The notes under the pieces: generated by a model
Database searches by the model: none
What the model was told of the DNA's origin: nothing
The model's input: only the letters and a program-made list of their open reading frames with translations
Shown: piece after piece, positions 3,032-63,264 of the stretch
Layout of the letters: the number at the start of each line of letters is the position of its first letter
Numbering within the stretch: position 1 is the first letter of the stretch
IMG/VR virus record: IMGVR_UViG_3300035497_000275
Coordinates: 1-64,000 of that record
Length of the DNA stretch: 64,000 bases
Reading direction: 5' to 3' (one strand)
Source: a virus
Lineage: Duplodnaviria > Heunggongvirae > Uroviricota > Caudoviricetes
Translations under genes and position numbers: made by a program

Positions 3032-4506
3032 CTCCCCCTGTCGTTATAAATATGGCAGTACCCAATTTCCTTCCAGCGGTTATACCGCCCATTGAATTGA
3101 TACAAAACCTGAATTTTATCATCATCATTTCTGGTCTTATCGAGAAAAGCAACAATATATTTCTTGTCTTTATCAAGTTGAATCGGTTTTTTGATGTTGG
3201 TATACTTTCCGCTGCTATCTTTTTCAAGTTGATACGCCTTTACATCGAATTTTTCTCCAGTATATTCATCCTCCCATAATTGCCGTGCATAAACCATTTC
3301 AGAAAAAACTTCCTTGATTTGCTTTGCATTAGAAAGACAACTGGCATCTAAATACCGTTTATTCAATGTATGTAACGCAAGCTGATATGTACAAATCAAA
3401 GAAATATTTTCACGGCTTGTAATCTGAAACAACTTGCGACTATGGATCAAAAGCTGTTGCCACATAGAATCATCAATTTCATCTTCAGATTTCATAGTAT
3501 CAAACATGATTGTTTGATACCCTAATTTCGATAACTTCTTGATGATCCGTTTTACCTTGTTCATATCATTATCAAACAATTTGACAAATTGAATGGAACT
3601 ATATTTCTCTCTGGAGATTTTCTTAGCCTTGCGAAGCATTTCCCACTGTTCATCGTCAAATTTACCGATTTTCAGTTTTTTGCGAGTCAATCCCCAATAA
3701 TCCAAATCATTCGTTAAAATATGAACCAAAAGCAACTGCTTAAAATCTTTAGAACGCTGCTCATTGCTGATTACGGCGCATTTTACACCATCTTCTGTCA
3801 TCGGAATAATCATGTTCTCAAAAACAAAAGAAGTCTTTCCAACACCGCTATGCCCAGCAAACATATACATATCGCCTAATGGTGTGCCAAGCGTTAAATA
3901 ATTCAGAATCGGGCAATGTGCGCCATAACTAATACCCTGTGCTGATCCGTCATTACATTCTTCAAGAAATTTTTCATCAATTTCAAGAGTTTCAATGTCG
4001 ATATCGTGTGTGTTCTTAATGCTGACACTATTCAAAATATAATCATAGTAGTCATAGACTTCTTGATTTGTCATTTTTGAAAATTTATCAATATTGGCAA
4101 GAACATTAAACCCTTTATCATGTAATGTCATCAGCGTATTCATCTTTGCAATTTTATCATAATACGCATCGACATTTTCTGGAGAAACTAATGCACACAA
4201 TTCACTGACAGTAGAGTATCCGCCCAACTCATTAAAATGTTTTTTAACAGTTGGTTTGTTCTCCAAAAATGTATAGATTGTTACATTGTCAAACGTTCTG
4301 AACCCTTGATTATACATTTGCCGACCAAGGGAAAAATAAAACACTCCATCTTCTGTCTTTAGCGTTTTATCATCACCGACATTAACACGGCGAAAATCGT
4401 CAAACAAATCTGGCTGTTTATATAAGCAAAAAACGAATGTAGCTTCTGCACTTTCTCGTCCTTTGATTAATTCTTCAGGATAGTCTTTTAGTTCTATTTG
4501 AATCAC
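3028..4506 (-). CDS. replicative DNA helicase, DnaB family
   Basis: 492 aa. Walker A FAGHSGVGKTSF, Walker B-like IMFD, DnaB-type C-terminal RecA-like domain. Confidence 0.8.
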   Translation of the reverse strand: MIQIELKDYPEELIKGRESAEATFVFCLYKQPDLFDDFRRVNVGDDKTLKTEDGVFYFSLGRQMYNQGFRTFDNVTIYTFLENKPTVKKHFNELGGYSTVSELCALVSPENVDAYYDKIAKMNTLMTLHDKGFNVLANIDKFSKMTNQEVYDYYDYILNSVSIKNTHDIDIETLEIDEKFLEECNDGSAQGISYGAHCPILNYLTLGTPLGDMYMFAGHSGVGKTSFVFENMIIPMTEDGVKCAVISNEQRSKDFKQLLLVHILTNDLDYWGLTRKKLKIGKFDDEQWEMLRKAKKISREKYSSIQFVKLFDNDMNKVKRIIKKLSKLGYQTIMFDTMKSEDEIDDSMWQQLLIHSRKLFQITSRENISLICTYQLALHTLNKRYLDASCLSNAKQIKEVFSEMVYARQLWEDEYTGEKFDVKAYQLEKDSSGKYTNIKKPIQLDKDKKYIVAFLDKTRNDDDKIQVLYQFNGRYNRWKEIGYCHIYNDRGR

Positions 4507-4512
4507 CTTCCT

Positions 4513-5019
4513 TTATAATTCATCATCGTCTAAGAAACCGCTTATATCCTTTCCAGCCGTTTTCGTGCCAAGATTAGATATGTCACTACACTCGATTTCA
4601 GTCTTTTTCATTTGTGTTTCTTGCTGTTGCTGCCGCTGGCACTCTTTATAAACGTCACCAATCTTATCTTTTATGATCGCAAACATATAAGAAATCTTAT
4701 TATATTCATTCTTGAATTCCTTGTGATCAAAACTGTACAAAATATCATCGTGACATTTTTGAAAAGTACGAAGGATTACATCATAATCATAAAAAGACAA
4801 GTCTTTTAACTTTTTGGGTAGCGAGGGTGGGAACGAATTCCCATCCCCGTATCCCAATAATTCATAACTGATATAATCAATCAGTTTTCTATAATCCTCT
4901 TTCCTTTTATGGTCAGCGTCATAGACTTCTTGGTTCTTATAATACTTTCCATTGATCTTAATAAAAGTATCTGTTGTACCAATTTCCTGTGTAACACAAC
5001 ATTTACACTGTCTTGCCAT
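4513..5019 (-). CDS. hypothetical protein (acidic C-terminus ..DDDEL)
   Basis: 168 aa ORF tightly packed in the replication operon; no recognisable motif. Confidence 0.4.
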   Translation of the reverse strand: MARQCKCCVTQEIGTTDTFIKINGKYYKNQEVYDADHKRKEDYRKLIDYISYELLGYGDGNSFPPSLPKKLKDLSFYDYDVILRTFQKCHDDILYSFDHKEFKNEYNKISYMFAIIKDKIGDVYKECQRQQQQETQMKKTEIECSDISNLGTKTAGKDISGFLDDDEL

Positions 5020-5034
5020 TAGCTGACCTCCTGA

Positions 5035-6174
5035 TTACTCTGATTCCTTCAGCACGTTTACAATATTCGTTAATACAAGCGTAGGAATATCATCAGGATT
5101 CTTGAAATTCGGGATGTTGTTCTCCGCCATAATTGCCTTTACCTTCTTCTTGGTAGCAGCATCGGCCTCGGAGAACTTATTCTGAACAATCACAATCAAC
5201 TCAGCGTTCTTTTCTTCATCCACCTTATTTGCGGCCTCTTGTTCCAGCATTTCAGCAATCTCATGTTCCTTTTCTTTTCTGGATTCCTCCAGTTCCTTCA
5301 TAGACTGCTCAACGGACTTGTCACCCTTGCTATGCTCTGCCAAAATAGCATCTGTCAACGCCTTAATAAAGGCATCTGCATCCAGCGGAATCTCATCAAC
5401 AATATCGGCAAAACGGGACTTAGAATCAACACTGTAATTGTCATCCCGGAAAGAAATGCGGCGGGATTCACTCAAAACCTTTCCCTTTACTTCCTCCTGC
5501 TTTGTGACAACATTCTTCTTTCCTGTTTTCTGCTTGACAATCTCACGGTCAATGTAAGCGACACCAAGAAAATGCAGTTTCGTCTTTAACGCATTGAAAT
5601 AACGCTGAGACATATTCGTAGTCAAGATAGAATAGGACTCACCAGTAATCGGATCATCAACATCCTTCTTCTTGGTATGCCCAATTGCGATAAAGGAAAC
5701 ACCAACACTCTTCAGTTCCCACAGTTTATCAAGAACAATCTGGATTGCCTTATCCTCGCCAGCCATAAATCCACCAAAAGCAGCCTTAATAGAAGTAATC
5801 TTAGGCTTGTCAGGATTTGCCCGGTTGTGCATCCGAATCACTTCAGGCTCGGCAATTTCAAGCAACTGATCGAAAGTATCCAGAACAACCACACGCAAGT
5901 CCTTATAGTCAGTCAGTTTGTTCTCAATGATATCATCACAAACCTCCTTGAACTTTGCCCAATCAGGAATCTTCTCAGATACAATTCCATTAATTGCATC
6001 ATGACCATCTTCCTTGCCAATGTCGAAAGCAATATAGCCATCAACACCAGCCAGCTTTTCGCATACCTCCTTAATAAGAGTAGACTTGCCAATGCCTGAT
6101 TCACCAATCAGGCCAATATTATATGCAAGCGGATCAATACAAATTTCTCGTTTCTGTCCAAACTTTCTTGCCAT
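5035..6174 (-). CDS. RecA-fold ATPase, Sak4-like
   Basis: 379 aa. Walker A GLIGESGIGKST near the N-terminus, Walker B VVVLD. Long charged C-terminal tail. Confidence 0.55.
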   Translation of the reverse strand: MARKFGQKREICIDPLAYNIGLIGESGIGKSTLIKEVCEKLAGVDGYIAFDIGKEDGHDAINGIVSEKIPDWAKFKEVCDDIIENKLTDYKDLRVVVLDTFDQLLEIAEPEVIRMHNRANPDKPKITSIKAAFGGFMAGEDKAIQIVLDKLWELKSVGVSFIAIGHTKKKDVDDPITGESYSILTTNMSQRYFNALKTKLHFLGVAYIDREIVKQKTGKKNVVTKQEEVKGKVLSESRRISFRDDNYSVDSKSRFADIVDEIPLDADAFIKALTDAILAEHSKGDKSVEQSMKELEESRKEKEHEIAEMLEQEAANKVDEEKNAELIVIVQNKFSEADAATKKKVKAIMAENNIPNFKNPDDIPTLVLTNIVNVLKESE

Positions 6175-9009: not shown

Positions 9010-9881
9010 TTATAAGCCTTTAAAAATATGCTTAATAACATCCTTTGTCCAACCGTTTCCACATAAGGATCGGCGTACATTATCACTGTATCCTTCGGTA
9101 TATCCATCTGGTAAAGTTTGCAACCGTTCATATTCTACGGGAGATAATTTCCGAATCCGTTCATTATCCCAAACTTTCTTTTCCTGATACCCTCCATTGA
9201 CACAAGTAAGAGTTGCACATTTGAATTTTGGATTATATACACGCTTTAATAAATCATGCGTATTGATTTGCAAAGTCGCAATGACCTTTTTATCGTCACC
9301 ATGAAAAATAAACGGTTTATCATAGTAATCTTTTTCTGGTACAGACTCTACCATGATATCTTGTAAAACTGTGTTATTCTTTTCTGGCAAGGGAGCAATT
9401 GGAATGTTCGTCCAATATAGTCTTTCACGATCCTGTGCTGAAAAGAGGTTGCTATTTATGTGATAACAACTTGCCCCCCCAGATTTGCGGTAATGGTATC
9501 TATATCGGCTTTATACTTTGGAACAACATTCTCCAACATGAAATAACGTGGATGAATTTCTTTAACTGCTCTCGCATATTCAAAGAAAATACCAGATTTA
9601 CCATTTAGGCCAGAACAGATCGAATCATTTTCTTGTCGTACTACGGAAAGGCTCTGGCAGCACGTTCCCGCAATCACCAAATCAAATCCATTGAACTGAG
9701 AAAAATCCGCTCCAATTACATTCCCATGATGATGAATGAATGGAAAATGTCGTGAACTGATTTCAATGGCTGGTTGGAAAATCTCGAATGTATGATATTC
9801 GTCCACTGTAATTCCTAATTCCTGCAAGGCAATCAAGCCTGTTTCAATACCGCCACAAATCGACAATACTTTTAATCCCAT
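9010..9881 (-). pseudogene. DNA (cytosine-5)-methyltransferase interrupted by a -1 frameshift in a G7 homopolymer (ORFs 9456..9881 and 9010..9390)
   Basis: The N-part has motifs I (LSICGGIETG), IV (GTCCQSLS) and VI (ENV). It stops after ..ANLGGQVVIT at the coding-strand G7 run (plus C7 at 9474..9480). With G8 the frame reads LGGASCYHINSNLFSAQDRERLYW (motif VIII QxRxR) and continues in frame into the 9010..9390 ORF (RKLSPVEYERLQTLPDGYT, RRSLCGNGWT are motifs IX/X). Confidence 0.7.
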
Positions 9882-9893
9882 GTTTTACTCTTT

Positions 9894-10319
9894 TCAAAAT
9901 AAAGGAGAATTAACGAGCGCATAAACACGGTTATCTCCATCAAAGATAATTTCTTTGATACAGTTTTTGGATTTAATATGATAACACTTGTTACCATCCA
10001 ACTGGTACACTGTCATGCCTGTATTCAACGCATACATCAATTCATCAAAAACACCACGACCAATCATCCCGGAAACCGTAGAAAACACAAGTGTATCACA
10101 TTCAGCAAGTGTATCAATAGCTGCTGTCATGATTTCTGACTCAGCGCAATCCTGCGGAAGAACTTCACTCGGATTTACAATTTCAATTGAACTATCCGGG
10201 AAAGCATCATAGATAACGTTCTTCTCATAAGCCTCCATCTTTGTGTCATACTTCCATGTGTGATGTGCGTAATAAATTTTCACTTGTATACCTCCTATTA
10301 AGTTATCAAATAAGACCAA
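9894..10319 (-). CDS. hypothetical protein; possible nucleoside 2-deoxyribosyltransferase-like fold
   Basis: 141 aa. KIYYAHH near the N-terminus and GVFDELMYALNTGMTVY weakly resemble the NDT/Rcl fold motif FE.GYA.A.GKPV. Tentative. Confidence 0.3.
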   Translation of the reverse strand: MVLFDNLIGGIQVKIYYAHHTWKYDTKMEAYEKNVIYDAFPDSSIEIVNPSEVLPQDCAESEIMTAAIDTLAECDTLVFSTVSGMIGRGVFDELMYALNTGMTVYQLDGNKCYHIKSKNCIKEIIFDGDNRVYALVNSPLF

Positions 10320-10741
10320 CGATTTTTCATTTCTTCTGGTGAAACATAATAATCACGTTTTCTACTTCCAGTCCACGCAATTCCACCAGCTTCGCCATCA
10401 AATGTAAAATTACTTGCTTTTAATGAACTTCCATTTTCAGAAGCCAATGTATAAGTGATTACTCTTTGATACCCCATATCTTTAGCAATACCCAAACAGG
10501 CTCCATATAATTTAGAACAAGCATTTCTTGTTCCATCAACACAATTACGATAAATTTCTAATGTTAATCCATCATCTAAATATCTTGCCGTTGGTCTGCC
10601 GCATATTGCAACTCCACATAATCTGTCATCATCATAACAAGATATTGCAAACTTTCCTCCAACTGGCGGAATATTATGACGGTGATATTGTTTTACATAT
10701 TCTTTTGCTGGAGTAAGATGTATTGGTCTAATTTTTAACAT
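10298..10741 (-). CDS. hypothetical protein
   Basis: 147 aa ORF inside the methyltransferase island; no recognisable motif. Confidence 0.4.
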   Translation of the reverse strand: MLKIRPIHLTPAKEYVKQYHRHNIPPVGGKFAISCYDDDRLCGVAICGRPTARYLDDGLTLEIYRNCVDGTRNACSKLYGACLGIAKDMGYQRVITYTLASENGSSLKASNFTFDGEAGGIAWTGSRKRDYYVSPEEMKNRWSYLIT

Positions 10742-10764: not shown

Positions 10765-11262
10765 TCACCTTTCTTGCACTCTAAAAATTACTGGAATCAT
10801 TACCGTAGTACGTTCCTGCATCCACGGTTTTGACGGTTCAGAAAATCTATTACTATGTTCATTGACTACGATAATATCTCCTATCGTATAGAAGAAATCG
10901 CAGTTTGATAAATCTTGCGGCAACTCAACTGATTTATCACAAGTTTCTAAATTAATGATTTTATTTAGACACTCTTGTACAGTTTCGAGTACAAATAACA
11001 GAGTTCCATCATGCCGTGATGTTTTTGTTGTAAAATATCTGAAATCAGCATTAGGATCATAGGTAATTGTTGAAGTCATTTCACTTGGTTTATCGCCAAC
11101 CGAATATGTACACTTGATTTGATTGTTCTTATCAAAAGTAATTAAACCAGTTGGAGATAAGACTGTTACATTTTCAAAAGATATATCAAAGCCATCTGCG
11201 CCAAATTCTTGAATTCTCTTTTTAATGAAATCCAAACTCTTATTCATACAATCACCTTTCAA
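10765..11262 (-). CDS. hypothetical protein
   Basis: 165 aa ORF; overlaps the upstream methyltransferase gene by 11 nt. Confidence 0.4.
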   Translation of the reverse strand: MKGDCMNKSLDFIKKRIQEFGADGFDISFENVTVLSPTGLITFDKNNQIKCTYSVGDKPSEMTSTITYDPNADFRYFTTKTSRHDGTLLFVLETVQECLNKIINLETCDKSVELPQDLSNCDFFYTIGDIIVVNEHSNRFSEPSKPWMQERTTVMIPVIFRVQER

Positions 11263-11881
11263 AATCGTCTATACGCTGACACGCTGTTTGATAATATTGA
11301 CCATCCAGTTCATATCCGATAAATCTTCGTCCTGTATGTAAAGCAGCCAATGCCGTTGAACCAGCACCGATAAAACCATCAAATACAATGTCATTTGGCC
11401 TACTGTTATTCCGAATAAACAGTTCGAGAAGTTCTGTCGGCTTTTCTGTTGGATGAACCAATTTCGCAGAAGATACCTTTGCACAGTCAATCACGTCTGC
11501 TATGCGCTTTTCTTGAAATAGTGAACGTCCTTTATGACCGAACAACACCATTTCATATTTTGGTGCATATGCACCTTTTAAGTCACCGCTGCCATGATTG
11601 TTCTTATTCCAAATCAGGATATTCTTCAGCGTAAAGTATTTCTCAAATTCCGTCTTGAAAAATTCAATATGATGCCAACTGCAAAACATATAAATTGCAG
11701 AATCGTTTTTCAAAATACGATGATATTGATATAACGACTTGGAAATTAACTGGTTTGCGTCTTTATCGTTTTGAATCCTATCAAACTTTTCTTTTACGAC
11801 ACGTCTATTACTTCTGTAATTAATCAAATAAGGAGGATCAGTTACAATCAAATCAACTGATTCATCAGGCATTTTCTCCAT
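11252..11881 (-). CDS. DNA methyltransferase, beta-class (N6-adenine or N4-cytosine; DPPY then FxGxG)
   Basis: 209 aa. DLIVTDPPY near the N-terminus, HPTEKP, C-terminal FDGFIGAGST (motif I). Confidence 0.8.
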   Translation of the reverse strand: MEKMPDESVDLIVTDPPYLINYRSNRRVVKEKFDRIQNDKDANQLISKSLYQYHRILKNDSAIYMFCSWHHIEFFKTEFEKYFTLKNILIWNKNNHGSGDLKGAYAPKYEMVLFGHKGRSLFQEKRIADVIDCAKVSSAKLVHPTEKPTELLELFIRNNSRPNDIVFDGFIGAGSTALAALHTGRRFIGYELDGQYYQTACQRIDDFER

Positions 11882-11994
11882 CCCACAAATGCAATCACTG
11901 TTGAAAATTACATTTGTTCGTAGTAAACTACTTTCAAGTGGTTCTCCTTGCCCCCCCCCAAGTTCTCGACTGCATCATGTTTCCCTCCATATTA

Positions 11995-12096
11995 TTACAC
12001 CGGGACTGGATAAGGAGAACAACATGAAAGCATAATTGACAACATCAACGCATATGTAATCAGAAAAATAATATGTTTTGATACTTTTACAGTCAT
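11995..12096 (-). CDS. putative 33-aa hydrophobic peptide (MTVKVSKHIIFLITYALMLSIMLSCCSPYPVPV)
   Basis: AAGGAGGT RBS 5 nt upstream of ATG at 12096. Below the ORF-track size cutoff. Confidence 0.25.
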   Translation of the reverse strand: MTVKVSKHIIFLITYALMLSIMLSCCSPYPVPV

Positions 12097-12118: not shown

Positions 12119-12847
12119 TTATGTATCTAAAATATATAATTGCTCCGTGATATTTAACCGGGAAGCATTATCCAATGTTCTTTTGACTGGCTGTGACCAG
12201 ATCGACTTCCATTGTACTGGTGCGGCTTGTTCCGAAACCAAAACAATATTCTTAGCAGACATTTCTTCTGCCCAATTCCAGAATTGTTCATGGTCAAATT
12301 CTTGTTGATACCCTGTTGTATTCGCATATGGAATATCACAGTAAATTACACCATGTTCATACTTTGACTGATCAAGCTGCTGATAGTCAAACTCGGCAAA
12401 TTCTACTCCTTGTAATGATGGAATCTGATTTAACAAATTTCGCTTTGCTTCATCATAATAGTTCCGAATTGTGCCGATTTTTGTTTTGACTGTCCCGGCT
12501 CTTCCGCCAAAGAACTTCCCATTATACGATGCAAGAAATCCTACCGCACCGATATACCAATCTGGAAATTGATGATCACCAGTTTGGTAGGATTTTCTGA
12601 CTGCATCATACTCGTCTTTCGTAATTTCATCTGGCAAAGTAGTAATTAAATCCATATTCTTGAATAGTTCAATGAGATAATGGTTGATATCATATCCCAT
12701 TTTCCTATTGCAAGAAATCTTATCAATTACGTTTGCCCCCCCCACGAAAGGCTCAAGGTAAAAATCGGCATCAAAATCGCTGATATAAGTCTGTATAATT
12801 GGAACGATAAACTTAGCAATGCGGGATTTTGAGCCAACGTACTTCAT
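12119..12847 (-). CDS. DNA adenine methyltransferase, Dam (D12 class, alpha)
   Basis: 242 aa. KYVGSKSRIAKFIVPII...EPFVGGANV (motifs X/I) and later CDIPY (DPPY variant), the Dam order. Confidence 0.85.
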   Translation of the reverse strand: MKYVGSKSRIAKFIVPIIQTYISDFDADFYLEPFVGGANVIDKISCNRKMGYDINHYLIELFKNMDLITTLPDEITKDEYDAVRKSYQTGDHQFPDWYIGAVGFLASYNGKFFGGRAGTVKTKIGTIRNYYDEAKRNLLNQIPSLQGVEFAEFDYQQLDQSKYEHGVIYCDIPYANTTGYQQEFDHEQFWNWAEEMSAKNIVLVSEQAAPVQWKSIWSQPVKRTLDNASRLNITEQLYILDT

Positions 12848-13948: not shown

Positions 13949-14440
13949 TTATCTTAATTTGATCCAATATCCTATATCCGACATTTCTTTAACCGCAGCA
14001 TCATAGTCGTTGTCGGTAAATACGACTAATTCACTTGGGAAAGGCGCAGGATCGTCTTGGTCATTGAAACGCAATCGTCCTTTTACGAAACAAACGTATT
14101 TTGCATTTGGAAAAACATAATTGTGCTGTGCTTTTACATCTGTTCTTGCTGGAATCAACATCACAGAAGTAATGTGATTTAACTGGCTTTCAATACAACA
14201 CTTTTCAATCCAATCCTCTTGTCCCGGATGTGCCTTCGTCTTACGTTCATAAGGCGGATTACAAAAAACTGTTTGCCCCCCCCAAGTTTGTGCCAGTCCA
14301 TCTTGTTCGATGGTATAGTAGGCATCACACTTATGGTTCGTATCATCTGCACATGGATCAAGTGTGAAATGAAAGACAGAATTCAAGCGATCAAATAACC
14401 ATTGCGGCGTTCCCCAATTATTGTTTCCAGTGCTTAACAA
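13949..14440 (-). CDS. DNA N6-adenine methyltransferase, small phage Dam-like (NPPY) family
   Basis: 163 aa. WGTPQWLFD...TWGGQTVFCNPPY (motif IV NPPY). Confidence 0.7.
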   Translation of the reverse strand: MLSTGNNNWGTPQWLFDRLNSVFHFTLDPCADDTNHKCDAYYTIEQDGLAQTWGGQTVFCNPPYERKTKAHPGQEDWIEKCCIESQLNHITSVMLIPARTDVKAQHNYVFPNAKYVCFVKGRLRFNDQDDPAPFPSELVVFTDNDYDAAVKEMSDIGYWIKLR

Positions 14441-14470: not shown

Positions 14471-14487
14471 CTTGCATTTATGGTTAT
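14471..14487 (-). promoter_or_regulatory. conserved 17-bp motif ATAACCATAAATGCAAG (copy 1)
   Basis: Exact match to the motif also found at 27628, 45318, 50171 and 54263; about 30 nt upstream of the 14440 start. Confidence 0.4.
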
Positions 14488-16667
14488 GTAGTTAAAAAAG
14501 AATTATAGAACATATCCCGAAGCTGGATGATATGTGTTGGATGATCTTCTTGGGCGGAAAGATTCATCACGAATCCATAGAACTGATTTTCAAGAGGTGT
14601 CTGCAACGAACCCATATACTTGAAATGTCCTTGGCGGAAAATTGTATGAGCCATTGACCGCATCTTCTTCCAGAGTTTATAATAAGACAGTTTGAACTTC
14701 ACCATGAATCCAACGCTATCCTCTACCACAAAACCCTCAATCACATGACCATCATACAAATAATCGTCAGTCATGATCTCATCATACCAATTGTAGAAAT
14801 CATGCCAATTCTGAATCTGAATCGCTCGTTTCTTTACCTCGAAGCCAAAATCCTTTCCAAGTTGGACAAGCTGCGAATACGAATACTTTTCAAATTCGAT
14901 CTCATTTTTCACTACATCCAGCAGGAACAAATGTGACTTATCATATTTGATAATATGAGGATCATGCTCCATATCTACACATTCAAACACGAATGTCACA
15001 TTCTTCTGCTTCATGTACTCTTTCAGCACATCCGCATTTTTGACGTTGGCATAGAACATATCATGCAACCAGTCAGAAAATTCTCCAGTAGGATCGGACT
15101 TGCTCGTGATAAAGAAATCATCCAGTTCGGCATCATAAGATACCATTCCAAGAAATCCATTCTCTTTCACATAAGCCGTGACAGGGAACCTGAATTTATG
15201 CTGGAGCATATCAAATCTTGTTTCTGGACGCTCGTTGACATTAAAGAATTTCGGATAGGCTCTTGCAACAACATTGCCAGTTACCGTATTGATAAACAAT
15301 CCTCTGGCCTTTGTTGTCTGCTCATTCCATTTCTTATCATAGAAGGCATTGCGAGTGAAATTGAAAGACGAAATATTTCCGAACTTCTTTTCGTTAATGT
15401 ACTTATTGCGCCGCATCTGGTCAACCAAATCCATTACCGTGGATTCTTTTTCAGTATACTTTTCAGGAATTTCTTCGTCCTGCTGCCTGAATACCGTATT
15501 CCGAATACTGATCGGATGGAAACCATCTGCATCCAGCGTTACAACTCGCAAATCCTTTCCGAATTCCACGCTGCCTTCCAAATCAAAACAACGGTCTGAA
15601 ACTTGAATCGGCAAATCCTGTGTATTTCGATGACCAAACACCTGATATACATTCTCAGGCATCAGTGTATCAAAACAATGAACAACATCTACATACTCAC
15701 TATATTTACCGACACCACGAATCATCTGGTCTGACGCAACCATTGTCAGATTATCAGGAATCATGCTCAAACCAGCGTGTGTGACAAGAACTGTCTTACC
15801 TCCATATGTATAATAGGCGCATTGACTCAGTTTTCGATACAACATTCTGGCAATCTTTGTATCCAGTCCGCTCATTTCAAGCTGCCTTCTTGTTACACGC
15901 TCAAATTCCGGGGACTTCGACACACCACCATGCGCCCAATACCAAAGCCAGCGTTCATGATTTCCTTCCAGCAGGATCACATTCGGACGATCCATAATAC
16001 TGTACAGGAAATTGATGACTTCAACATTTTCAATTCCACGGTCAATATAATCGCCGCAGAAAATGTACAGTTCATCATCCTGAATCCCATCATTCAAATA
16101 CTCCTGAAGGACGGTATTACAACCGTGGATATCACCAATATGATGGATTTTCTTAAAGTTGGAGAAATCCATTGGACGATACCAAATCTTGTCCAACTCG
16201 TCAGGCTGAATCACCGTCACACCCGCTGGAATCTTCTGCATAGCAAACCGGGAATACATATTATCAATGACTTCCTCTGGAACTTGCTTGTAGTATGGTC
16301 TGTTTTTATTTCTCCGTTTACATTCCTCAATAGGAACTGTGGTGAAATCAACGCAGTACATTCGATATCGGTAAGTTTTTGCCATATCCTTATAACGGTT
16401 GATCTCTGCCGTTTTAGAATTTGTAGCATCCACCACCACGAATTCTCCACGCTGCATTCTGGCTTCGAGCATCTGGAACAGTAATTGCCAAACTGTTTTA
16501 TCGTTACCCTGACTGATCCCCATTGAGCCATCCACTTGCATCACCGGGGACTGACACATCAGACGAATATTATCAGCGGAAAGCGTAAACTGTTCCAAAC
16601 CATGCTCTTTGATGTAGGTGGACTTTCCTACGCCAGCCGCACCACGCATCAATAACAATACTCGCAT
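14484..16667 (-). CDS. Pnkp-like RNA repair enzyme: polynucleotide kinase + calcineurin-type phosphatase + ligase-like adenylyltransferase
   Basis: 727 aa. N-terminal P-loop LLLMRGAAGVGKSTY. Central metallophosphatase motifs IGDIHGC, GDYIDRG, GNHE. C-terminal YVKENGFLG resembles nucleotidyltransferase motif I (KxDG/KEDGSL of RNA ligases). Same domain order as bacterial Pnkp. Confidence 0.75.
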   Translation of the reverse strand: MRVLLLMRGAAGVGKSTYIKEHGLEQFTLSADNIRLMCQSPVMQVDGSMGISQGNDKTVWQLLFQMLEARMQRGEFVVVDATNSKTAEINRYKDMAKTYRYRMYCVDFTTVPIEECKRRNKNRPYYKQVPEEVIDNMYSRFAMQKIPAGVTVIQPDELDKIWYRPMDFSNFKKIHHIGDIHGCNTVLQEYLNDGIQDDELYIFCGDYIDRGIENVEVINFLYSIMDRPNVILLEGNHERWLWYWAHGGVSKSPEFERVTRRQLEMSGLDTKIARMLYRKLSQCAYYTYGGKTVLVTHAGLSMIPDNLTMVASDQMIRGVGKYSEYVDVVHCFDTLMPENVYQVFGHRNTQDLPIQVSDRCFDLEGSVEFGKDLRVVTLDADGFHPISIRNTVFRQQDEEIPEKYTEKESTVMDLVDQMRRNKYINEKKFGNISSFNFTRNAFYDKKWNEQTTKARGLFINTVTGNVVARAYPKFFNVNERPETRFDMLQHKFRFPVTAYVKENGFLGMVSYDAELDDFFITSKSDPTGEFSDWLHDMFYANVKNADVLKEYMKQKNVTFVFECVDMEHDPHIIKYDKSHLFLLDVVKNEIEFEKYSYSQLVQLGKDFGFEVKKRAIQIQNWHDFYNWYDEIMTDDYLYDGHVIEGFVVEDSVGFMVKFKLSYYKLWKKMRSMAHTIFRQGHFKYMGSLQTPLENQFYGFVMNLSAQEDHPTHIIQLRDMFYNSFLTT

Positions 16668-26373: not shown

Positions 26374-27213
26374 TTAATTATAGGACGCAACAAAAACAAA
26401 CTGGTTGATGTAGTCCGGCTGCTGTGTGAAGATAGGAATTTCCATATCAAAGCACCACTTATTTCGCACGATCTCACCAATCTTCACAGGCTTCTTTACA
26501 CAACAAGTACCACGCTTACAAGGTGTAGAGAAATCATTCCAGTTGATCCCCTTTTCTGTGAAAAGCATATCCTGAATCTTATCGCAGGATTGGTTCATCA
26601 ACTGCTTGTGGGAGAAATTAGCCTGACCGACAGATTGAATACTGTTCCGTGTGCAATCTACCTGTCTCCACACGAAGTAATTGGCAACATCATCCTTCGG
26701 CACATTGAATACACGGGCATCAAACAATGCCTTATCAAACCGGGATGTGTAAATCTGCGCCAGCTTCAAGGCATCCCGATCCACATTCGGATCATTTGTT
26801 CCGCCTTCATACCAGTCTGGCAAAGTCTCATTGCCCCATTCATCCACGTTCTTACGCCATGCGGCATTGAAGGCCATTGTTGCCATAGACGCTGAGACAC
26901 TACACATCTTCTGAAGCGTATTATCAAACCAAGAATCGCTTGCAATCGTCTGATAATCGACCAGCAACAGAGAAATTTCATCCGACTGTGTATAACCAAG
27001 CACACAGCCCTGAATATTTTCGCAGAGATACTTCATCGTATCCTGCATCGTTTTCATCAAAATCTGATCAAAAGGTTTCTTAAATCCTCTTGTAAATGTG
27101 TGAAAGGCTTTCCCATCAATCCGAATGATAACAGGCATACGCCGCACCAAATGCGCCCTTGTGACATTCTCGTAGGTTTTCATACGGTTGCCAAGATTAT
27201 CACGCTTATCCAT
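26374..27213 (-). CDS. Thg1-like protein (tRNA-His guanylyltransferase / 3'-5' nucleotidyltransferase family)
   Basis: 279 aa. KTYENVTRAHLVRRMPVIIRIDGKAFHTFTRGFKKPFD and YTQSDEISLLLVD match the Thg1 catalytic RIDG..FH.F and SDE blocks. Confidence 0.8.
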   Translation of the reverse strand: MDKRDNLGNRMKTYENVTRAHLVRRMPVIIRIDGKAFHTFTRGFKKPFDQILMKTMQDTMKYLCENIQGCVLGYTQSDEISLLLVDYQTIASDSWFDNTLQKMCSVSASMATMAFNAAWRKNVDEWGNETLPDWYEGGTNDPNVDRDALKLAQIYTSRFDKALFDARVFNVPKDDVANYFVWRQVDCTRNSIQSVGQANFSHKQLMNQSCDKIQDMLFTEKGINWNDFSTPCKRGTCCVKKPVKIGEIVRNKWCFDMEIPIFTQQPDYINQFVFVASYN

Positions 27214-30039: not shown

Positions 30040-31377
30040 TTACACCTCCAGATATGTTTTTGCCTGTTCCATCAAAACAGACCTTTTATTTTCCAATGTG
30101 CCTTCCACCACGGCATCCAGCAACTTTTTCAAAACTGCTCCAAGCTGGATACCTTGACGGAAACCAAGTTCCATCAGGTCTTTTCCGCTGACCGCCAAAT
30201 CCTTTAAGGTATAGCAGTCCTGCTCGGCCTGAATCTCCGCATAGATTTCCCAAATCTTTGAAAGGTTCGCTCGATCATCCGCAATGGGAGTCTGCGCCGC
30301 TTTATCTGCTGCCTTGACGTGCAACAGGCGTTCAAACTGTTCCGCTCCATAACGGTTCAAACAACGGCGCACAGAGGCTTTTGTGGGCGCAATCTCATGG
30401 TCATGAAATTCCACAAGCTGCGTAACAGTTTCCACCGTTTTATTATCAAAACGAAGATTCTTCAAGGAATTTTCCGCTATTCCAGCACTGATCACAGAAT
30501 GGTGATAGAAATGTCCATTCCCCTGTTCATCCAGCGTCATGCAATGGGGTTTTCCAAGGTCATGATAAAGTAGCGCAAGGCGGACATACAAATCCTTCGG
30601 CGCATAGGAAACTGCCGTGACAGTATGATTCCACACGTCCATATAATGATGAGGATTATGCTGCAAAAATCCAACGGCTGGCGTGATTTCCGGGATGATG
30701 ACGGCGAAAATCTCCTGATAACAGCGAAGCATGGTATAGCAAGCGTCACTCAGCAGGATTTCAGACAGTTCTCCAATCATCCGCTCTGGCGCAATTTGCT
30801 TCAGCAAATCCTTATGACGGAACATGGCTTCCTCTGTCCGCTTTTCCACAAAGAATCCAAACCGGGACGCAAAGCGAATGGCACGGAGAATCCGCAAAGC
30901 ATCCTCCTGAAACCGCTTATCTGGATTTCCAACACAGCAGATTTGTCCAAGTTTCAAATCAAAACGGCTTTTGGAATAGTCGATCACTCTGCCGCTGCTG
31001 TCTGCCGCCATTGCGTTGATCCGAAAATCACGGCGGGACAAATCTTCCTTTAGGTCACTGACGAATTCCACAGAATCAGGATGACGATGATCCGAATACA
31101 CACCATCTTTACGAAACGTGGTGATTTCATAACCTACACCATCCAGCAGGACAGTCAATGTTCCATGCTTCAATCCCGTTTCAATAACACGGAAATTACG
31201 GAAAATAGATTTCATCTGTCCCGGCAACGCACTGGTGCAAATGTCCCAATCATGCGGCGTTCTTCCAAGCAGACTATCCCGGACACATCCGCCCACCACA
31301 TAGGCGGAACATCCCGCATCCGTCAAAATATTCATCAACTGACGGGGAGCATCAGGAATTTCAATATAGGTGTCCAT
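30040..31377 (-). CDS. CCA-adding tRNA nucleotidyltransferase with C-terminal HD domain
   Basis: 445 aa. Pol-beta head motif AYVVGGCVRDSLLGRTPHDWDICT. C-terminal HD signature LLYHDLGKPH. Confidence 0.85.
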   Translation of the reverse strand: MDTYIEIPDAPRQLMNILTDAGCSAYVVGGCVRDSLLGRTPHDWDICTSALPGQMKSIFRNFRVIETGLKHGTLTVLLDGVGYEITTFRKDGVYSDHRHPDSVEFVSDLKEDLSRRDFRINAMAADSSGRVIDYSKSRFDLKLGQICCVGNPDKRFQEDALRILRAIRFASRFGFFVEKRTEEAMFRHKDLLKQIAPERMIGELSEILLSDACYTMLRCYQEIFAVIIPEITPAVGFLQHNPHHYMDVWNHTVTAVSYAPKDLYVRLALLYHDLGKPHCMTLDEQGNGHFYHHSVISAGIAENSLKNLRFDNKTVETVTQLVEFHDHEIAPTKASVRRCLNRYGAEQFERLLHVKAADKAAQTPIADDRANLSKIWEIYAEIQAEQDCYTLKDLAVSGKDLMELGFRQGIQLGAVLKKLLDAVVEGTLENKRSVLMEQAKTYLEV

Positions 31378-54287: not shown

Positions 54288-54929
54288 ATGAAAGTTTTGG
54301 AATTGTTTGCTGGGACTCGTTCTATTGGCAAGGCTTTTGAACGGGGGGGGCATGAAGTTTTTAGTATAGAATGGGATCAGCATTTTGAGAACATTAATCT
54401 TTATGCCGATATTGGTAAGGTAACTGCTGAAGAAATTATTAAACAGTTTGGCAGACCTGATGTGATTTGGGCTTCCCCTGATTGTACTACATATTCAATT
54501 GCTGCGATTTCACATCATAGAAGAAAAGAAGATGATGGCAATTTAGCAGCGGTTTCAGAATACGCAAAATTTTGTGATCAAGTAAATGTTCATGTTTTGG
54601 AGTTGATTAAAGAATTGAATCCAAAATTTTGGTTCATTGAAAATCCTCGTGGTGGATTAAGGAAGATGCGTTTTATGCAAGGGCTTCCACGTTATACTGT
54701 TACATATTGTCAATATGGCGATTCTCGTATGAAACCAACAGATATTTTTACAAATCACCCAAATCCAGAATTTAAACCGCCTTGCCATAATGGTGATCCG
54801 TGTCATGTATCTGCGCCAAGAGGTGCTAAGACTGGAACACAAGGATTAAAGGGGCATATTGAACGTTCTATTATTCCAGAACAATTATGTGACCATATTG
54901 TAAAAATTTGCGAAGATTATTGGGAGTGA
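54288..54929 (+). CDS. compact SAM-dependent DNA methyltransferase, cytosine-5-like
   Basis: 213 aa. LELFAGTRSIG (motif I), ASPDCTTYS (PC motif), FIENPRG (ENV-like). Contains a G8 run at 54343..54350. Confidence 0.5.
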   Translation: MKVLELFAGTRSIGKAFERGGHEVFSIEWDQHFENINLYADIGKVTAEEIIKQFGRPDVIWASPDCTTYSIAAISHHRRKEDDGNLAAVSEYAKFCDQVNVHVLELIKELNPKFWFIENPRGGLRKMRFMQGLPRYTVTYCQYGDSRMKPTDIFTNHPNPEFKPPCHNGDPCHVSAPRGAKTGTQGLKGHIERSIIPEQLCDHIVKICEDYWE

Positions 54930-62301: not shown

Positions 62302-62376
62302 GGCGTGTTAGTCAAGTGGTTAAGACACCGCCCTTTCACGGCGGTAACACGAGTTCGAGTCTCGTACACGTCACCA
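62302..62376 (+). tRNA. tRNA-Glu (UUC)
   Basis: Acceptor GGCGTGT/ACACGTC, anticodon arm CCGCC-CTTTCAC-GGCGG, T-arm ACGAG-TTCGAGT-CTCGT, CCA encoded. 75 nt. Confidence 0.85.
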
Positions 62377-62520
62377 ATAGGGAACGGTTAATTAGAATAT
62401 CATAAACTCTTTGTTAGACGAAAGGGTTCGCTGCTCATGAGGCGTGTCTATATGATATTGTAAGTAAGGATTAACCAAGTAATAAGAGTTATGGAGTGGT
62501 TTTCTTATTACAAAAGACAA

Positions 62521-62594
62521 TGCGGAATATTGTAATGGTAGCATATTAGCCTCATAAGCTGATGATTCTGGTTCAATTCCAGATTCCGCAACCA
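62521..62594 (+). tRNA. tRNA-Met/Ile2 type (CAU), D-arm atypical
   Basis: Acceptor TGCGGAA/TTCCGCA, anticodon arm TTAGC-CTCATAA-GCTGA, T-arm TCTGG-TTCAATT-CCAGA, CCA. No clean 4-bp D-stem found by eye. Confidence 0.6.
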
Positions 62595-62597
62595 AAT

Positions 62598-62686
62598 GGA
62601 GTGTTGCCAGAGTTGGTAATGGGTCGGATTGCTAATCCGCAGCCAACGGAAACGTTGCGAAGGTTCAAATCCTTCACACTCCGCCA
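62598..62686 (+). tRNA. tRNA-Ser (GCU)
   Basis: Acceptor GGAGTGT/ACACTCC, anticodon loop TTGCTAA, long variable arm, T-arm AAGG-TTCAAAT-CCTT, CCA. 89 nt. Confidence 0.75.
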
Positions 62687-62694
62687 AAATATAT

Positions 62695-62770
62695 GCTGCT
62701 GTGGCGCAATAGGTAGCGCAACTGATTTGTAATCAGTAGGTTGCAGGTTCGATTCCTGTCAGCAGCTCCA
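62695..62770 (+). tRNA. tRNA-Thr (UGU)
   Basis: Acceptor GCTGCTG/CAGCAGC, D-arm GCGC-AATAGGTA-GCGC, anticodon arm ACTGA-TTTGTAA-TCAGT, CCA. 76 nt. Confidence 0.85.
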
Positions 62771-62773
62771 TAT

Positions 62774-62849
62774 GGGGACGTGGCGCAATTGGGAGCGCAT
62801 CTGATTTGCATTCAGAGGGTTGTGGGTTCGAGTCCCATCGTTTCCACCA
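62774..62849 (+). tRNA. tRNA-Ala (UGC)
   Basis: Acceptor GGGGACG with G3-U70, anticodon arm TCTGA-TTTGCAT-TCAGA, T-arm GTGGG-TTCGAGT-CCCAT, CCA. 76 nt. Confidence 0.85.
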
Positions 62850-62852
62850 TAT

Positions 62853-62939
62853 GCGGATGTGATGGAATTGGTAGACGTGCTTGACTCAAAATCAAGTGGT
62901 AGTGATACCGTGTGGGTTCGAGTCCCACCATCCGTACCA
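62853..62939 (+). tRNA. tRNA-Leu (CAA)
   Basis: Acceptor GCGGATG/CATCCGT, anticodon arm CTTGA-CTCAAAA-TCAAG, long variable arm, CCA. 87 nt. Confidence 0.85.
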
Positions 62940-63013
62940 ATATTCCCGTATTACAATGGTCTATGTATCTTTCCTATTGGCGAGAGCGGCTTGCAACGCA
63001 GCGGGAATTATAT

Positions 63014-63088
63014 AGGAGTGTAGTGTAACGGTCAGCATATCGGACTTTGACTCCGCTGGTAAAGGTTCAAATCCTTTCACTCCTGCCA
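63014..63088 (+). tRNA. tRNA-Gln (UUG)
   Basis: Acceptor AGGAGTG/CACTCCT, anticodon loop CTTTGAC, T-arm AAAGG-TTCAAAT-CCTTT, CCA. 75 nt. Confidence 0.75.
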
Positions 63089-63099
63089 TAATTAAATAT

Positions 63100-63187
63100 G
63101 GGGGTATAGCCGAACTGGTATAGGCAACAGACTTAAAATCTGTCGGTAGTGATACCATTGTGGATTCGAGTTCCACTACCCCTACCA
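63100..63187 (+). tRNA. tRNA-Leu (UAA)
   Basis: Acceptor GGGGGTA/TACCCCT, anticodon arm ACAGA-CTTAAAA-TCTGT, long variable arm, T-arm GTGGA-TTCGAGT-TCCAC, CCA. 88 nt. Confidence 0.85.
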
Positions 63188-63190
63188 TAT

Positions 63191-63264
63191 TGAGGGTATG
63201 GTGTAATGGTAACACGCTTGCCTTGGGAGCAAGAGTAGCAGTTCAAGTCTGATACCTTCAGCCA
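63191..63264 (+). tRNA. tRNA-Pro (UGG)
   Basis: Anticodon arm CTTGC-CTTGGGA-GCAAG perfect, D-stem GTGT/ACAC, T-loop TTCAAGT, ends ..ACCTTCAGCCA. Short variable arm; exact ends uncertain. Confidence 0.7.

Follow-up and report, generated by a model that had tools for sequence, protein, structure and literature searches.

The window analysed here is a stretch of 64,000 nucleotides from a virus of the Caudoviricetes (positions 1 to 64,000 of IMG/VR record IMGVR_UViG_3300035497_000275). It is part of a genome of about 124 kb (Joint Genome Institute (JGI) contig of 123,740 bp), the genomes of relatives being 119–130 kb long. On its minus strand lies a gene for a beta-class N6/N4 DNA methyltransferase, with a run of nine guanines within its first ten codons. 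A first-pass annotation, made from the letters alone, had placed this run inside a leader mini-open reading frame (ORF) located upstream of a shorter methyltransferase gene. The features of the locus are the following.

Positions 11951 to 11959, minus strand: poly-G tract of nine guanines (G9), codons 7-10 of the beta-class N6/N4 methyltransferase gene; OFF in this genome.
Positions 11983 to 11988, minus strand: Shine-Dalgarno sequence GGAGGG, 4 nt 5′ of the predicted true start ATG (11978-11976), as read from the sequence.
Positions 11252 to 11978, minus strand: whole beta-class N6/N4 methyltransferase gene (PF01555), 241 amino acids (aa) if the tract is G8, frameshifted at the tract here.
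Positions 11934 to 11978, minus strand: the upstream ORF of the first-pass annotation (MMQSRTWGGARRTT*), read here as the authentic first 7 methyltransferase codons followed by out-of-frame reading past G9.
Positions 11252 to 11881, minus strand: 209-aa ORF (P0001), as annotated by gene callers; N-terminally truncated, it begins at M33 of the intact protein.

On the minus strand, GGAGGG (11988-11983) is followed by AAAC, ATGATG (11978-11973), CAGTCGAGAACTT, the G9 run (11959-11951) and CAAGG. The tract and the strong ribosome-binding site (RBS) in front of the methyltransferase are thus present as first described. Translation of the ATG-initiated frame through G9 produces MMQSRTWGGARRTT and ends at TGA 11936-11934, which is located 52 nt, and not 40 nt as previously counted, before the ATG at 11881. 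With G8, and likewise with G5 or G11, the same frame remains open in silico into MEKMPDES..., adding, exactly as had been noticed, 32 N-terminal residues and giving a protein of 241 aa; no intact 241-aa protein is obtained in silico with the other tract lengths. Lengths of class 2 modulo 3 are therefore ON. Those of class 0 modulo 3, which include G9, are without a start codon until M33, and those of class 1 modulo 3 (G7, G10) have a TTG in frame at the tract, but this TTG is devoid of an RBS and is out of frame with the ATG. This control of the frame by tract length is backed by relatives with intact (G8, G5) and out-of-frame (G6, G7, G9, G10, G12) alleles. A Shine-Dalgarno-like AAGGAG located just after the tract and followed by a TTG was also considered as an alternative start. 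It was rejected, since its frame is the wrong one (9-codon ORF) and relatives do not conserve it.

The encoded protein matches the Pfam family N6_N4_Mtase (PF01555) with 117 bits for a cutoff of 26.7 (E 1.6e-33). In its G8 form, DPPY (motif IV) is found at residues 47-50 and DGFIGAGST at residues 200-208, motif IV being located N-terminal to FxGxG (motif I). Domain score and motif order are those of a beta-class N6-adenine/N4-cytosine DNA methyltransferase, and the structure matches of the protein are DpnA, CcrM, MboIIA, RsrI and PvuII. The best PADLOC matches were MTase_II and oMTase. No restriction endonuclease was recognised with Pfam and PADLOC in the cluster of methyltransferase genes to which this gene belongs, so that these methyltransferases look orphan.

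Several lines of evidence bear on the true start of the gene. Matches of IMG/VR relatives begin at query residues 3-24, well before residue 33, where the start had been supposed, and all tract-less homologs (57-68% identity) start 13-22 residues upstream of M33, e.g. MTKKLLGSIELNRIYQRDCIEGIRMIPDKSVDLVVTDPPY. Residues 20-33 of the 241-aa protein show family-wide conservation, with N22, D28, C29, G32 and M33 conserved at 90% or more in an 18-sequence alignment. The CcrM structure (6pbd) aligns from residue 23 (VIFNSDCICGMEKMPDESVDLI against a 22-residue CcrM segment), the alignment with N4-cytosine methyltransferase structures begins at residues 21-22, and the best PADLOC profile match of the 209-aa ORF begins at profile position 22. 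For the structure we used an AlphaFold model of P0002, a natural intact relative with 84% identity that reads MIENSKTWGGQAEPF.... In this model, residues 1-14 are disordered, including the tract-encoded glycines of TWGGQ, while a strand (24-26) and a helix (30-34) are predicted with a local distance difference test score (pLDDT) of about 91 in a region absent from the 209-aa ORF. An N-terminal strand-helix before motif IV (residues 21-34) is found only in the G8 reading and not in the 209-aa ORF. According to the model, the tract would lie in a tolerant N-terminal tail, which would explain the in-frame TWGQ variant found in one relative (P0133), and the 209-aa ORF would lack the folded strand and helix.

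Because tract-less homologs start upstream, and because the residues that precede it are conserved and structure-aligned, M33 (ATG 11881) reads, from sequence comparison, as a conserved internal residue of a family motif and not as a start. By the same comparison the mini-ORF appears to be the true 5′ end of the methyltransferase gene, placed out of frame by one extra G. The first-pass annotation had taken the ATG of M33 as a start of its own and the mini-ORF as a leader, an anatomy contradicted by conservation, by the structures and by the P0002 model. Nor do the 32 residues, which it saw as an optional extension, look dispensable: they are conserved, can be aligned to solved structures and are confidently folded in the model. 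What survives of the proposed switch is its principle, since the number of guanines determines whether translation from the ATG with the good RBS enters the methyltransferase frame; the leader with its optional extension does not. Furthermore, relatives fuse the same start codon to the methyltransferase, and no separate conserved small ORF is present as would be the case for a leader peptide. A scan of the leader region revealed no promoter or terminator signal above chance, its RNA is unstructured (fold z-score -0.32) and it has no Rfam match at E ≤1.

The G9 tract is not isolated. The window (39.6% G+C) contains just five G/C runs of 7 or more, and all five are located on the coding strand of DNA methyltransferase genes confirmed by Pfam (PF00145, PF01555, PF02086, PF05869). 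The four others are the following.

Positions 9474 to 9480, minus strand: poly-G tract G7, OFF; it splits a C5 cytosine methyltransferase gene (PF00145; 9010-9881), for which G8 gives an intact protein of 290 aa.
Positions 12736 to 12743, minus strand: poly-G tract G8, ON; in the FxGxG motif region (EPFVGGAN) of a D12-class Dam methyltransferase gene (PF02086; 12119-12847).
Positions 14276 to 14283, minus strand: poly-G tract G8, ON; in a phage Dam-type N6-adenine methyltransferase gene (PF05869; 13949-14440).
Positions 54343 to 54350, plus strand: poly-G tract G8, ON; codons 19-21 of a short C5-type methyltransferase gene (PF00145; 54288-54929), 40 kb from the cluster.

G8 is the intact length for all five genes, three being ON and two OFF in this genome. 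The tract first noticed is one of five equivalents, every methyltransferase gene seen in the window carrying one, which turns a single-gene curiosity into a system. The distribution of run lengths is bimodal, with ten runs of 5, one of 6, one of 7, three of 8 and one of 9, and the string G7CA has 5 matches for 0.11 expected, with a maximum of 1 in any dinucleotide-preserving shuffle. The runs are thus both long (at least 7 bases) and above chance, as in simple sequence repeat (SSR) contingency loci, and they switch the frame both in silico and in the natural intact and broken alleles described below. Only 14% of glycine codons are GGG, and among the 56 Gly-Gly dipeptides encoded in ORFs of at least 100 aa, GGG-GGG pairs are found only at tracts. 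In the short C5 gene, the closest relative (L072) has G9, and in more distant homologs this position reads AGAGGACAT or AGGGGGCAT; the long run is therefore a derived expansion restricted to this phage clade. Gene callers render such genes truncated, split or TTG-started, and assemblies break at the tracts. In the JGI gene calls, for instance, the first C5 gene is divided into products of 141 aa and 126 aa, both matching PF00145.

The tracts also share a DNA flank. A (T/C)-G(n)-CA(A/G) context was found for 5/5 window tracts (9472-9480, 11949-11959, 12734-12743, 14274-14283 and 54343-54352) and in 24/28 contexts of the clade (loci L001, L002, L029, L039, L063, L064 and L072), whatever the reading frame or the gene family. 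After shorter runs of the window, CA follows G3 in 6% of cases, G4 in 18% and G5-6 in 0%. The tracts could conceivably be targets of a sequence-directed process, phage-encoded or replication-coupled, that creates, maintains or mutates G runs, although we regard this as a long shot. If true, the phage would possess a dedicated combinatorial 'methylome diversifier' with at least 2^5 states, resembling diversity-generating retroelements in its purpose but acting on epigenetic self-marking.

We then compared tract lengths in relatives. At the position of the G9 run, G6, G7, G8, G9, G10 and G12 were observed, together with an in-frame G5 form. The lengths of the orthologous beta-methyltransferase tract are distributed as follows.

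Window and the three further assemblies of this phage in which the tract is covered: G9.
L001: G7.
L002-L005: G6.
P0122 lineage: G6, G7, G9 (eight contigs) and G12.
P0004 lineage: G7 or G8.
Flintibacter muris DSM 110149 assembly: G10.
Mouse-gut metagenome-assembled genome: G8.
Three metagenome contigs found via sister-lineage flanks alone: G7, G8 and G7.

Intact alleles reading TWGGQ are those of P0002, P0124 (73 contigs), P0126 (24) and P0004 (at least 14). P0003 is also intact and reads through the tract, and P0133 is intact at G5, where it reads TWGQ. In the G8 relatives P0002, P0124, P0004, P0126 and P0131, the start codon is fused to the methyltransferase. The out-of-frame allele P0122 (209 aa) is present in 215 contigs, and in P0125 (60 contigs) and P0135 (40) the 'MGGQ' beginning corresponds to a gene-caller start at the TTG of cTTGGGGGGG, that is, to G7. 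The other tracts vary in the same way: for the C5 tract, contigs of the sister lineage carry G7 or G8 and the F. muris locus (L064) carries G9, and the tracts of the D12-class and PF05869 Dam genes both range from G6 to G9 in relatives. The positions of the tracts are kept across lineages with 76-85% protein identity and different flanks. The phage family is widespread, one short-ORF allele being present in 291 blocks of a public assembly collection.

Comparison of nearly identical genomes reveals how localized these changes are. Pairs of contigs from the same project differ by 0-1 substitutions over 4.9-8.4 kb, against 1-4 indels in G/C runs, and no indel was found outside G/C runs, save one single-base deletion adjoining a tract (L058/L059). 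L046 and L048 are separated by 3 tract indels and no substitution, and L030 and L032 by 2 tract indels, again with no substitution, over 8,447 bp. In the P0004 lineage, whose contigs share 99.5-99.9% identity, four other tracts nevertheless range from G6 to G9. ON/OFF states were assigned by homology scoring against intact proteins, except for beta-methyltransferase tracts at least 2 steps from G8, for which the modulo-3 rule was used, as just 7 residues lie upstream. At least 5 ON/OFF combinations occur among ten P0122-lineage contigs, and the states assort independently between genes. Contigs begin inside tracts or no more than 6-8 nt after them (L028, L034, L035, L036 and L037), L028 starting 6 nt after the tract orthologous to G9, and several contigs break exactly at the PF05869 Dam tract. 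These starts fit assembly-graph breaks at heterogeneous sites, which we count as weak evidence. The deletion that distinguishes L059 from L058 is located at the C5 tract: G8 is followed in L059 by AAATT and not by CAAATT, the C just after the tract being deleted and the frame restored. Either a compensatory mutation or an assembly error could account for it.

In the lineage of the window itself, four JGI assemblies made independently from this phage (99.99-100% identity) carry G8, G8, G9 and G7 wherever the tracts are covered. G9 is therefore not a random assembly slip.

We consider it likely that the G9 run is a hypermutable contingency locus, located in the first ten codons of an orphan methyltransferase gene of an SPbeta-like phage, and that it belongs to a multi-locus ON/OFF switching system. 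Polymerase slippage (slipped-strand mispairing) in phage DNA replication would add or remove G's. At lengths 5, 8 and 11, the ATG at 11978 and its GGAGGG would be in frame and the full 241-aa enzyme would be produced. At lengths 6, 9 and 12, translation would end after 14 codons and leave the truncated internal-Met ORF whose product, judged from its sequence, would be without the conserved strand and helix, the enzyme being in effect OFF. At lengths 7 and 10, the ATG would be out of frame and only the RBS-less TTG in frame. If each tract slips independently, a burst would carry mixed methyltransferase ON/OFF combinations, and the phage population can probably carry many DNA-methylation patterns at once. 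The purpose would probably be bet-hedging against host restriction. Methylation would shield the DNA from classical (Type I-III) restriction and sensitise it to methylation-dependent (Type IV) restriction; given this trade-off, a mixed population would always hold variants fit for the next host strain.

Several observations weigh against this interpretation. Repeat-number polymorphism was found among near-identical relatives; the window's own lineage shows G9 only. This lineage has one fixed state in four assemblies from two sample sets, so that switching is not so fast that the consensus differs everywhere, and a search with its exact flanks and a variable gap gave zero matches in metagenome and viral contig collections. 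Heterogeneity within a population is suggested indirectly, by differences between assemblies and by contigs breaking at tracts. Out-of-frame beta-methyltransferase alleles outnumber in-frame ones among database contigs, which also fits relaxed selection. Illumina assemblies can miscall G runs; A/T runs showed no such indels in the same comparisons. Finally, host assignment rests on a single isolate assembly.

The predominance of out-of-frame alleles would also be expected if replication were simply error-prone at G runs and the methyltransferases were dispensable cargo drifting to pseudogenes, with functionless tracts. The fact that 2/5 methyltransferase genes are broken in this genome, and that a tract also splits a polynucleotide kinase-phosphatase (Pnkp)/RNA ligase gene in relatives, is compatible with such non-adaptive decay. 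However, runs of 5-6 are scarce, whereas there is an excess of runs of 7-9, restricted to modification genes, and the tracts occupy the same codon in lineages that share 76-85% protein identity. Intact alleles are common, and OFF alleles are devoid of secondary lesions, a 1-nt change restoring the full-length conserved protein. The tract of the short C5 gene has been expanded to an in-frame length, not lost, and the rare GGG codon is doubled at tract sites only. Decay is thus an unlikely explanation. We regard as rather improbable the proposal that G9 is productively decoded by programmed +1 frameshifting or RNA-polymerase slippage, tract length tuning the level of the enzyme instead of turning it ON or OFF. 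G9 is indeed the commonest out-of-frame length in the sister lineage (8/12 contigs) and is stably fixed in the four assemblies of this phage, and long homopolymers are sites of RNA-polymerase slippage. Those, however, are mainly A/T runs, G/C runs being poorer substrates for transcriptional slippage. In addition, length is not fixed, since it ranges from G5 to G12, with G8 and G5 alleles in frame, no stimulatory structure is present downstream, and the AAGGAG that follows the tract is not kept in relatives. Retrieval bias accounts for part of the G9 excess, as a 209-aa query picks lengths divisible by 3.

There is very little probability left for a separate leader mini-ORF that regulates, by coupling or reinitiation, a 209-aa methyltransferase starting at ATG 11881, with G8 giving an extended isoform only. 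The G9 mini-ORF does have a strong RBS and a stop 52 nt before this ATG, a weak GGAG is located 3 nt before the second Met (ATGGAGAAAATG), and gene callers do annotate the 209-aa ORF. Nevertheless, M33 is internal to the family, every tract-less homolog beginning 13-22 residues upstream, and the residues that the short form would miss are conserved, structure-aligned and confidently folded. Neither the out-of-frame tail of the peptide nor the GGAG preceding the internal Met is kept in relatives, and the RNA signals looked for (structure, Rfam match, promoter or terminator above chance) were not found. Hardly credible, finally, is a sequencing or assembly artefact in which the true tract would be G8, with G9 and the G7 of the C5 gene being homopolymer miscalls. 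Homopolymer G runs are error-prone, and some contigs, including L028, end at or next to tracts. However, the four assemblies, from four samples, agree at every covered tract, other lineages reproducibly differ in length within sample series, and the same comparisons show essentially no indels outside G/C runs. Even were G9 an error, the five tracts would remain.

Beyond the methyltransferase genes, the phage encodes a head maturation protease, a DnaB helicase, a Sak4-like protein, an exonuclease, an SPbeta YorH-like protein and PolIII-alpha. Megablast of the methyltransferase cluster against deposited phage genomes gave no match; the nearest relationship that we found is that of the Pnkp/RNA ligase protein, with about 45% identity to SPbeta-like Bacillus phages. 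One relative is located on a 196-kb contig of the isolate assembly of Flintibacter muris DSM 110149 (Clostridia), which points to gut Clostridia as the host group. This link to a cultured mouse-gut isolate makes the idea directly testable, and recoding GGGGGGGG to GGTGGAGG would be a route to a locked-ON or locked-OFF tract.

Other features of the cluster and of the window can be mentioned. Directly upstream of the beta methyltransferase, a 33-aa ORF (11995-12096, minus strand) has the look of a signal peptide with a lipobox and a mature part of about 10 residues (MTVKVSKHIIFLITYALMLSIMLSCCSPYPVPV). Its 37-aa homolog P0121 is present in 634 database contigs, always at the same position. A Mom-like DNA-modification gene (10298-10741, minus strand; phrog_1384 9e-34, Pfam Mom below cutoff) is located within the cluster; it has no G tract and is flanked by ORFs of 141 aa and 165 aa without family match. 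The window also contains tRNA-repair genes, encoding a fused polynucleotide kinase-phosphatase/RNA ligase (14484-16667, minus strand), a Thg1-like tRNA-His guanylyltransferase and a CCA-adding enzyme. This toolkit and an array of nine tRNAs are located at 14484-16667, 26374-27213 and 30040-31377 (minus strand) and at 62302-63264 (plus strand), and their presence suggests a defence against host anticodon nucleases. Near 46 kb, gene orientation and GC skew change sign, genes being on the minus strand before this point and on the plus strand after it, which may correspond to a replication origin or to a boundary of divergent transcription.

Relatives carry further runs outside the methyltransferase genes. 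A PAPS-reductase-like gene (PF01507, 429 aa), located between the beta and C5 methyltransferase genes in relatives and absent from the window, has its own G7-G11 tract near its 5′ end (L053-L062, around 4163-5452; L001, 5250-5258; L002, 10829-10839). The Pnkp/RNA ligase gene of relatives (L001, 1047-1053; L058, L059, L087) contains GAAGCT-G6/G7-TTGG, a run without the CA flank that splits the gene when it is G7; the copy of the window (14484-16667) has no G run of 6 or more. Further tracts are present in two small genes of relatives. A G7 run is found 5′ of the start of a PemK/MazF-type toxin gene (L002 and L004, 2484-2490; L087, 4957-4963), in the context GATA-G7-TGCTGATATG; it is possibly located in the ribosome-binding region, and its length is the same in the contigs seen. 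In more distant relatives, an IS605 OrfB/TnpB-type gene is located beside the methyltransferase genes (L040, 10452-11678; L041, 6317-7543).

The usual view is that phages evade restriction with fixed sets of methyltransferases or with anti-restriction proteins. If every methyltransferase were gated by its own mutable switch, each burst would instead contain a standing mixture of methylation patterns. Phase-variable phage methylation would also confound the methylome-based linking of hosts and phages in metagenomes. Large phages of Bacillota, such as Bacillus phages of the SPbeta/phi3T type, carry several orphan methyltransferases that are expressed constitutively in infection and presumably serve in self-protection from restriction. 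The phage studied here differs from them in that each methyltransferase is gated by its own mutable tract.

SSR switching is well documented for bacterial methyltransferases. Phase-variable methyltransferases and phasevarions (Type III mod, Type I hsd, Type IIG cj0031) are known in Haemophilus, Neisseria, Helicobacter and Campylobacter (PMC5909438, PMC4889913). As in the present case, a repeat located in the 5′ part of a methyltransferase ORF turns the gene ON or OFF by frameshift, producing there a heterogeneous methylome in a clonal population. However, phasevarion systems are components of chromosomal restriction-modification systems whose switching rewires host gene expression. The genes described here do not belong to chromosomal Type I/III restriction-modification systems: the beta-class gene is phage-borne, of the PF01555 family and Type II-like or orphan, and the set comprises small orphan Type II-like enzymes of four families, several per genome. 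The presumed selection would be for restriction evasion and not for gene regulation.

Among phages, the receptor-binding genes of Campylobacter Fletchervirus contain several G7-G11 coding runs per genome, as far as the account of Sorensen et al. 2021 (Cell Rep 35:109214) in a later preprint goes (bioRxiv 10.1101/2025.10.21.683753, PMC12823448). According to this account, Fletchervirus has, like the present phage, G runs in phage-encoded coding regions, whose variation in length shifts the frame, and phenotypically mixed phage populations. Its tracts are, by contrast, located in tail fibre genes, and its Gram-negative host itself uses poly-G switching. Here, DNA-modification genes of an SPbeta-like phage of gut Clostridia are concerned, and the diversified trait would be methylation and not adsorption. 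According to the same preprint, one poly-G tract had been noted in passing, without further study, in a methylase of Bordetella phage BPP-1 (Liu et al. 2004, via bioRxiv 10.1101/2025.10.21.683753), which is also a G homopolymer inside a phage methylase gene; in that account, neither a set of tracts across all methyltransferases nor population evidence is reported. In coliphages T2 and T4, hypermutable homopolymers of at least 6 bases were described as contingency loci, with reversible frameshifts and bet-hedging (bioRxiv 10.1101/2025.10.21.683753). Those loci are located in genes of many functions, among which methyltransferases are not mentioned, whereas the long G runs of the present phage are found almost exclusively in DNA-modification genes. 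We found in the literature no phage with its whole methyltransferase complement gated by homopolymer or SSR tracts, in a search that most subscription journals lie outside. SSR switching of bacterial methyltransferases and poly-G tracts in phage receptor-binding genes are thus both known, and the combination of several such methyltransferase genes in one phage appears to be new.

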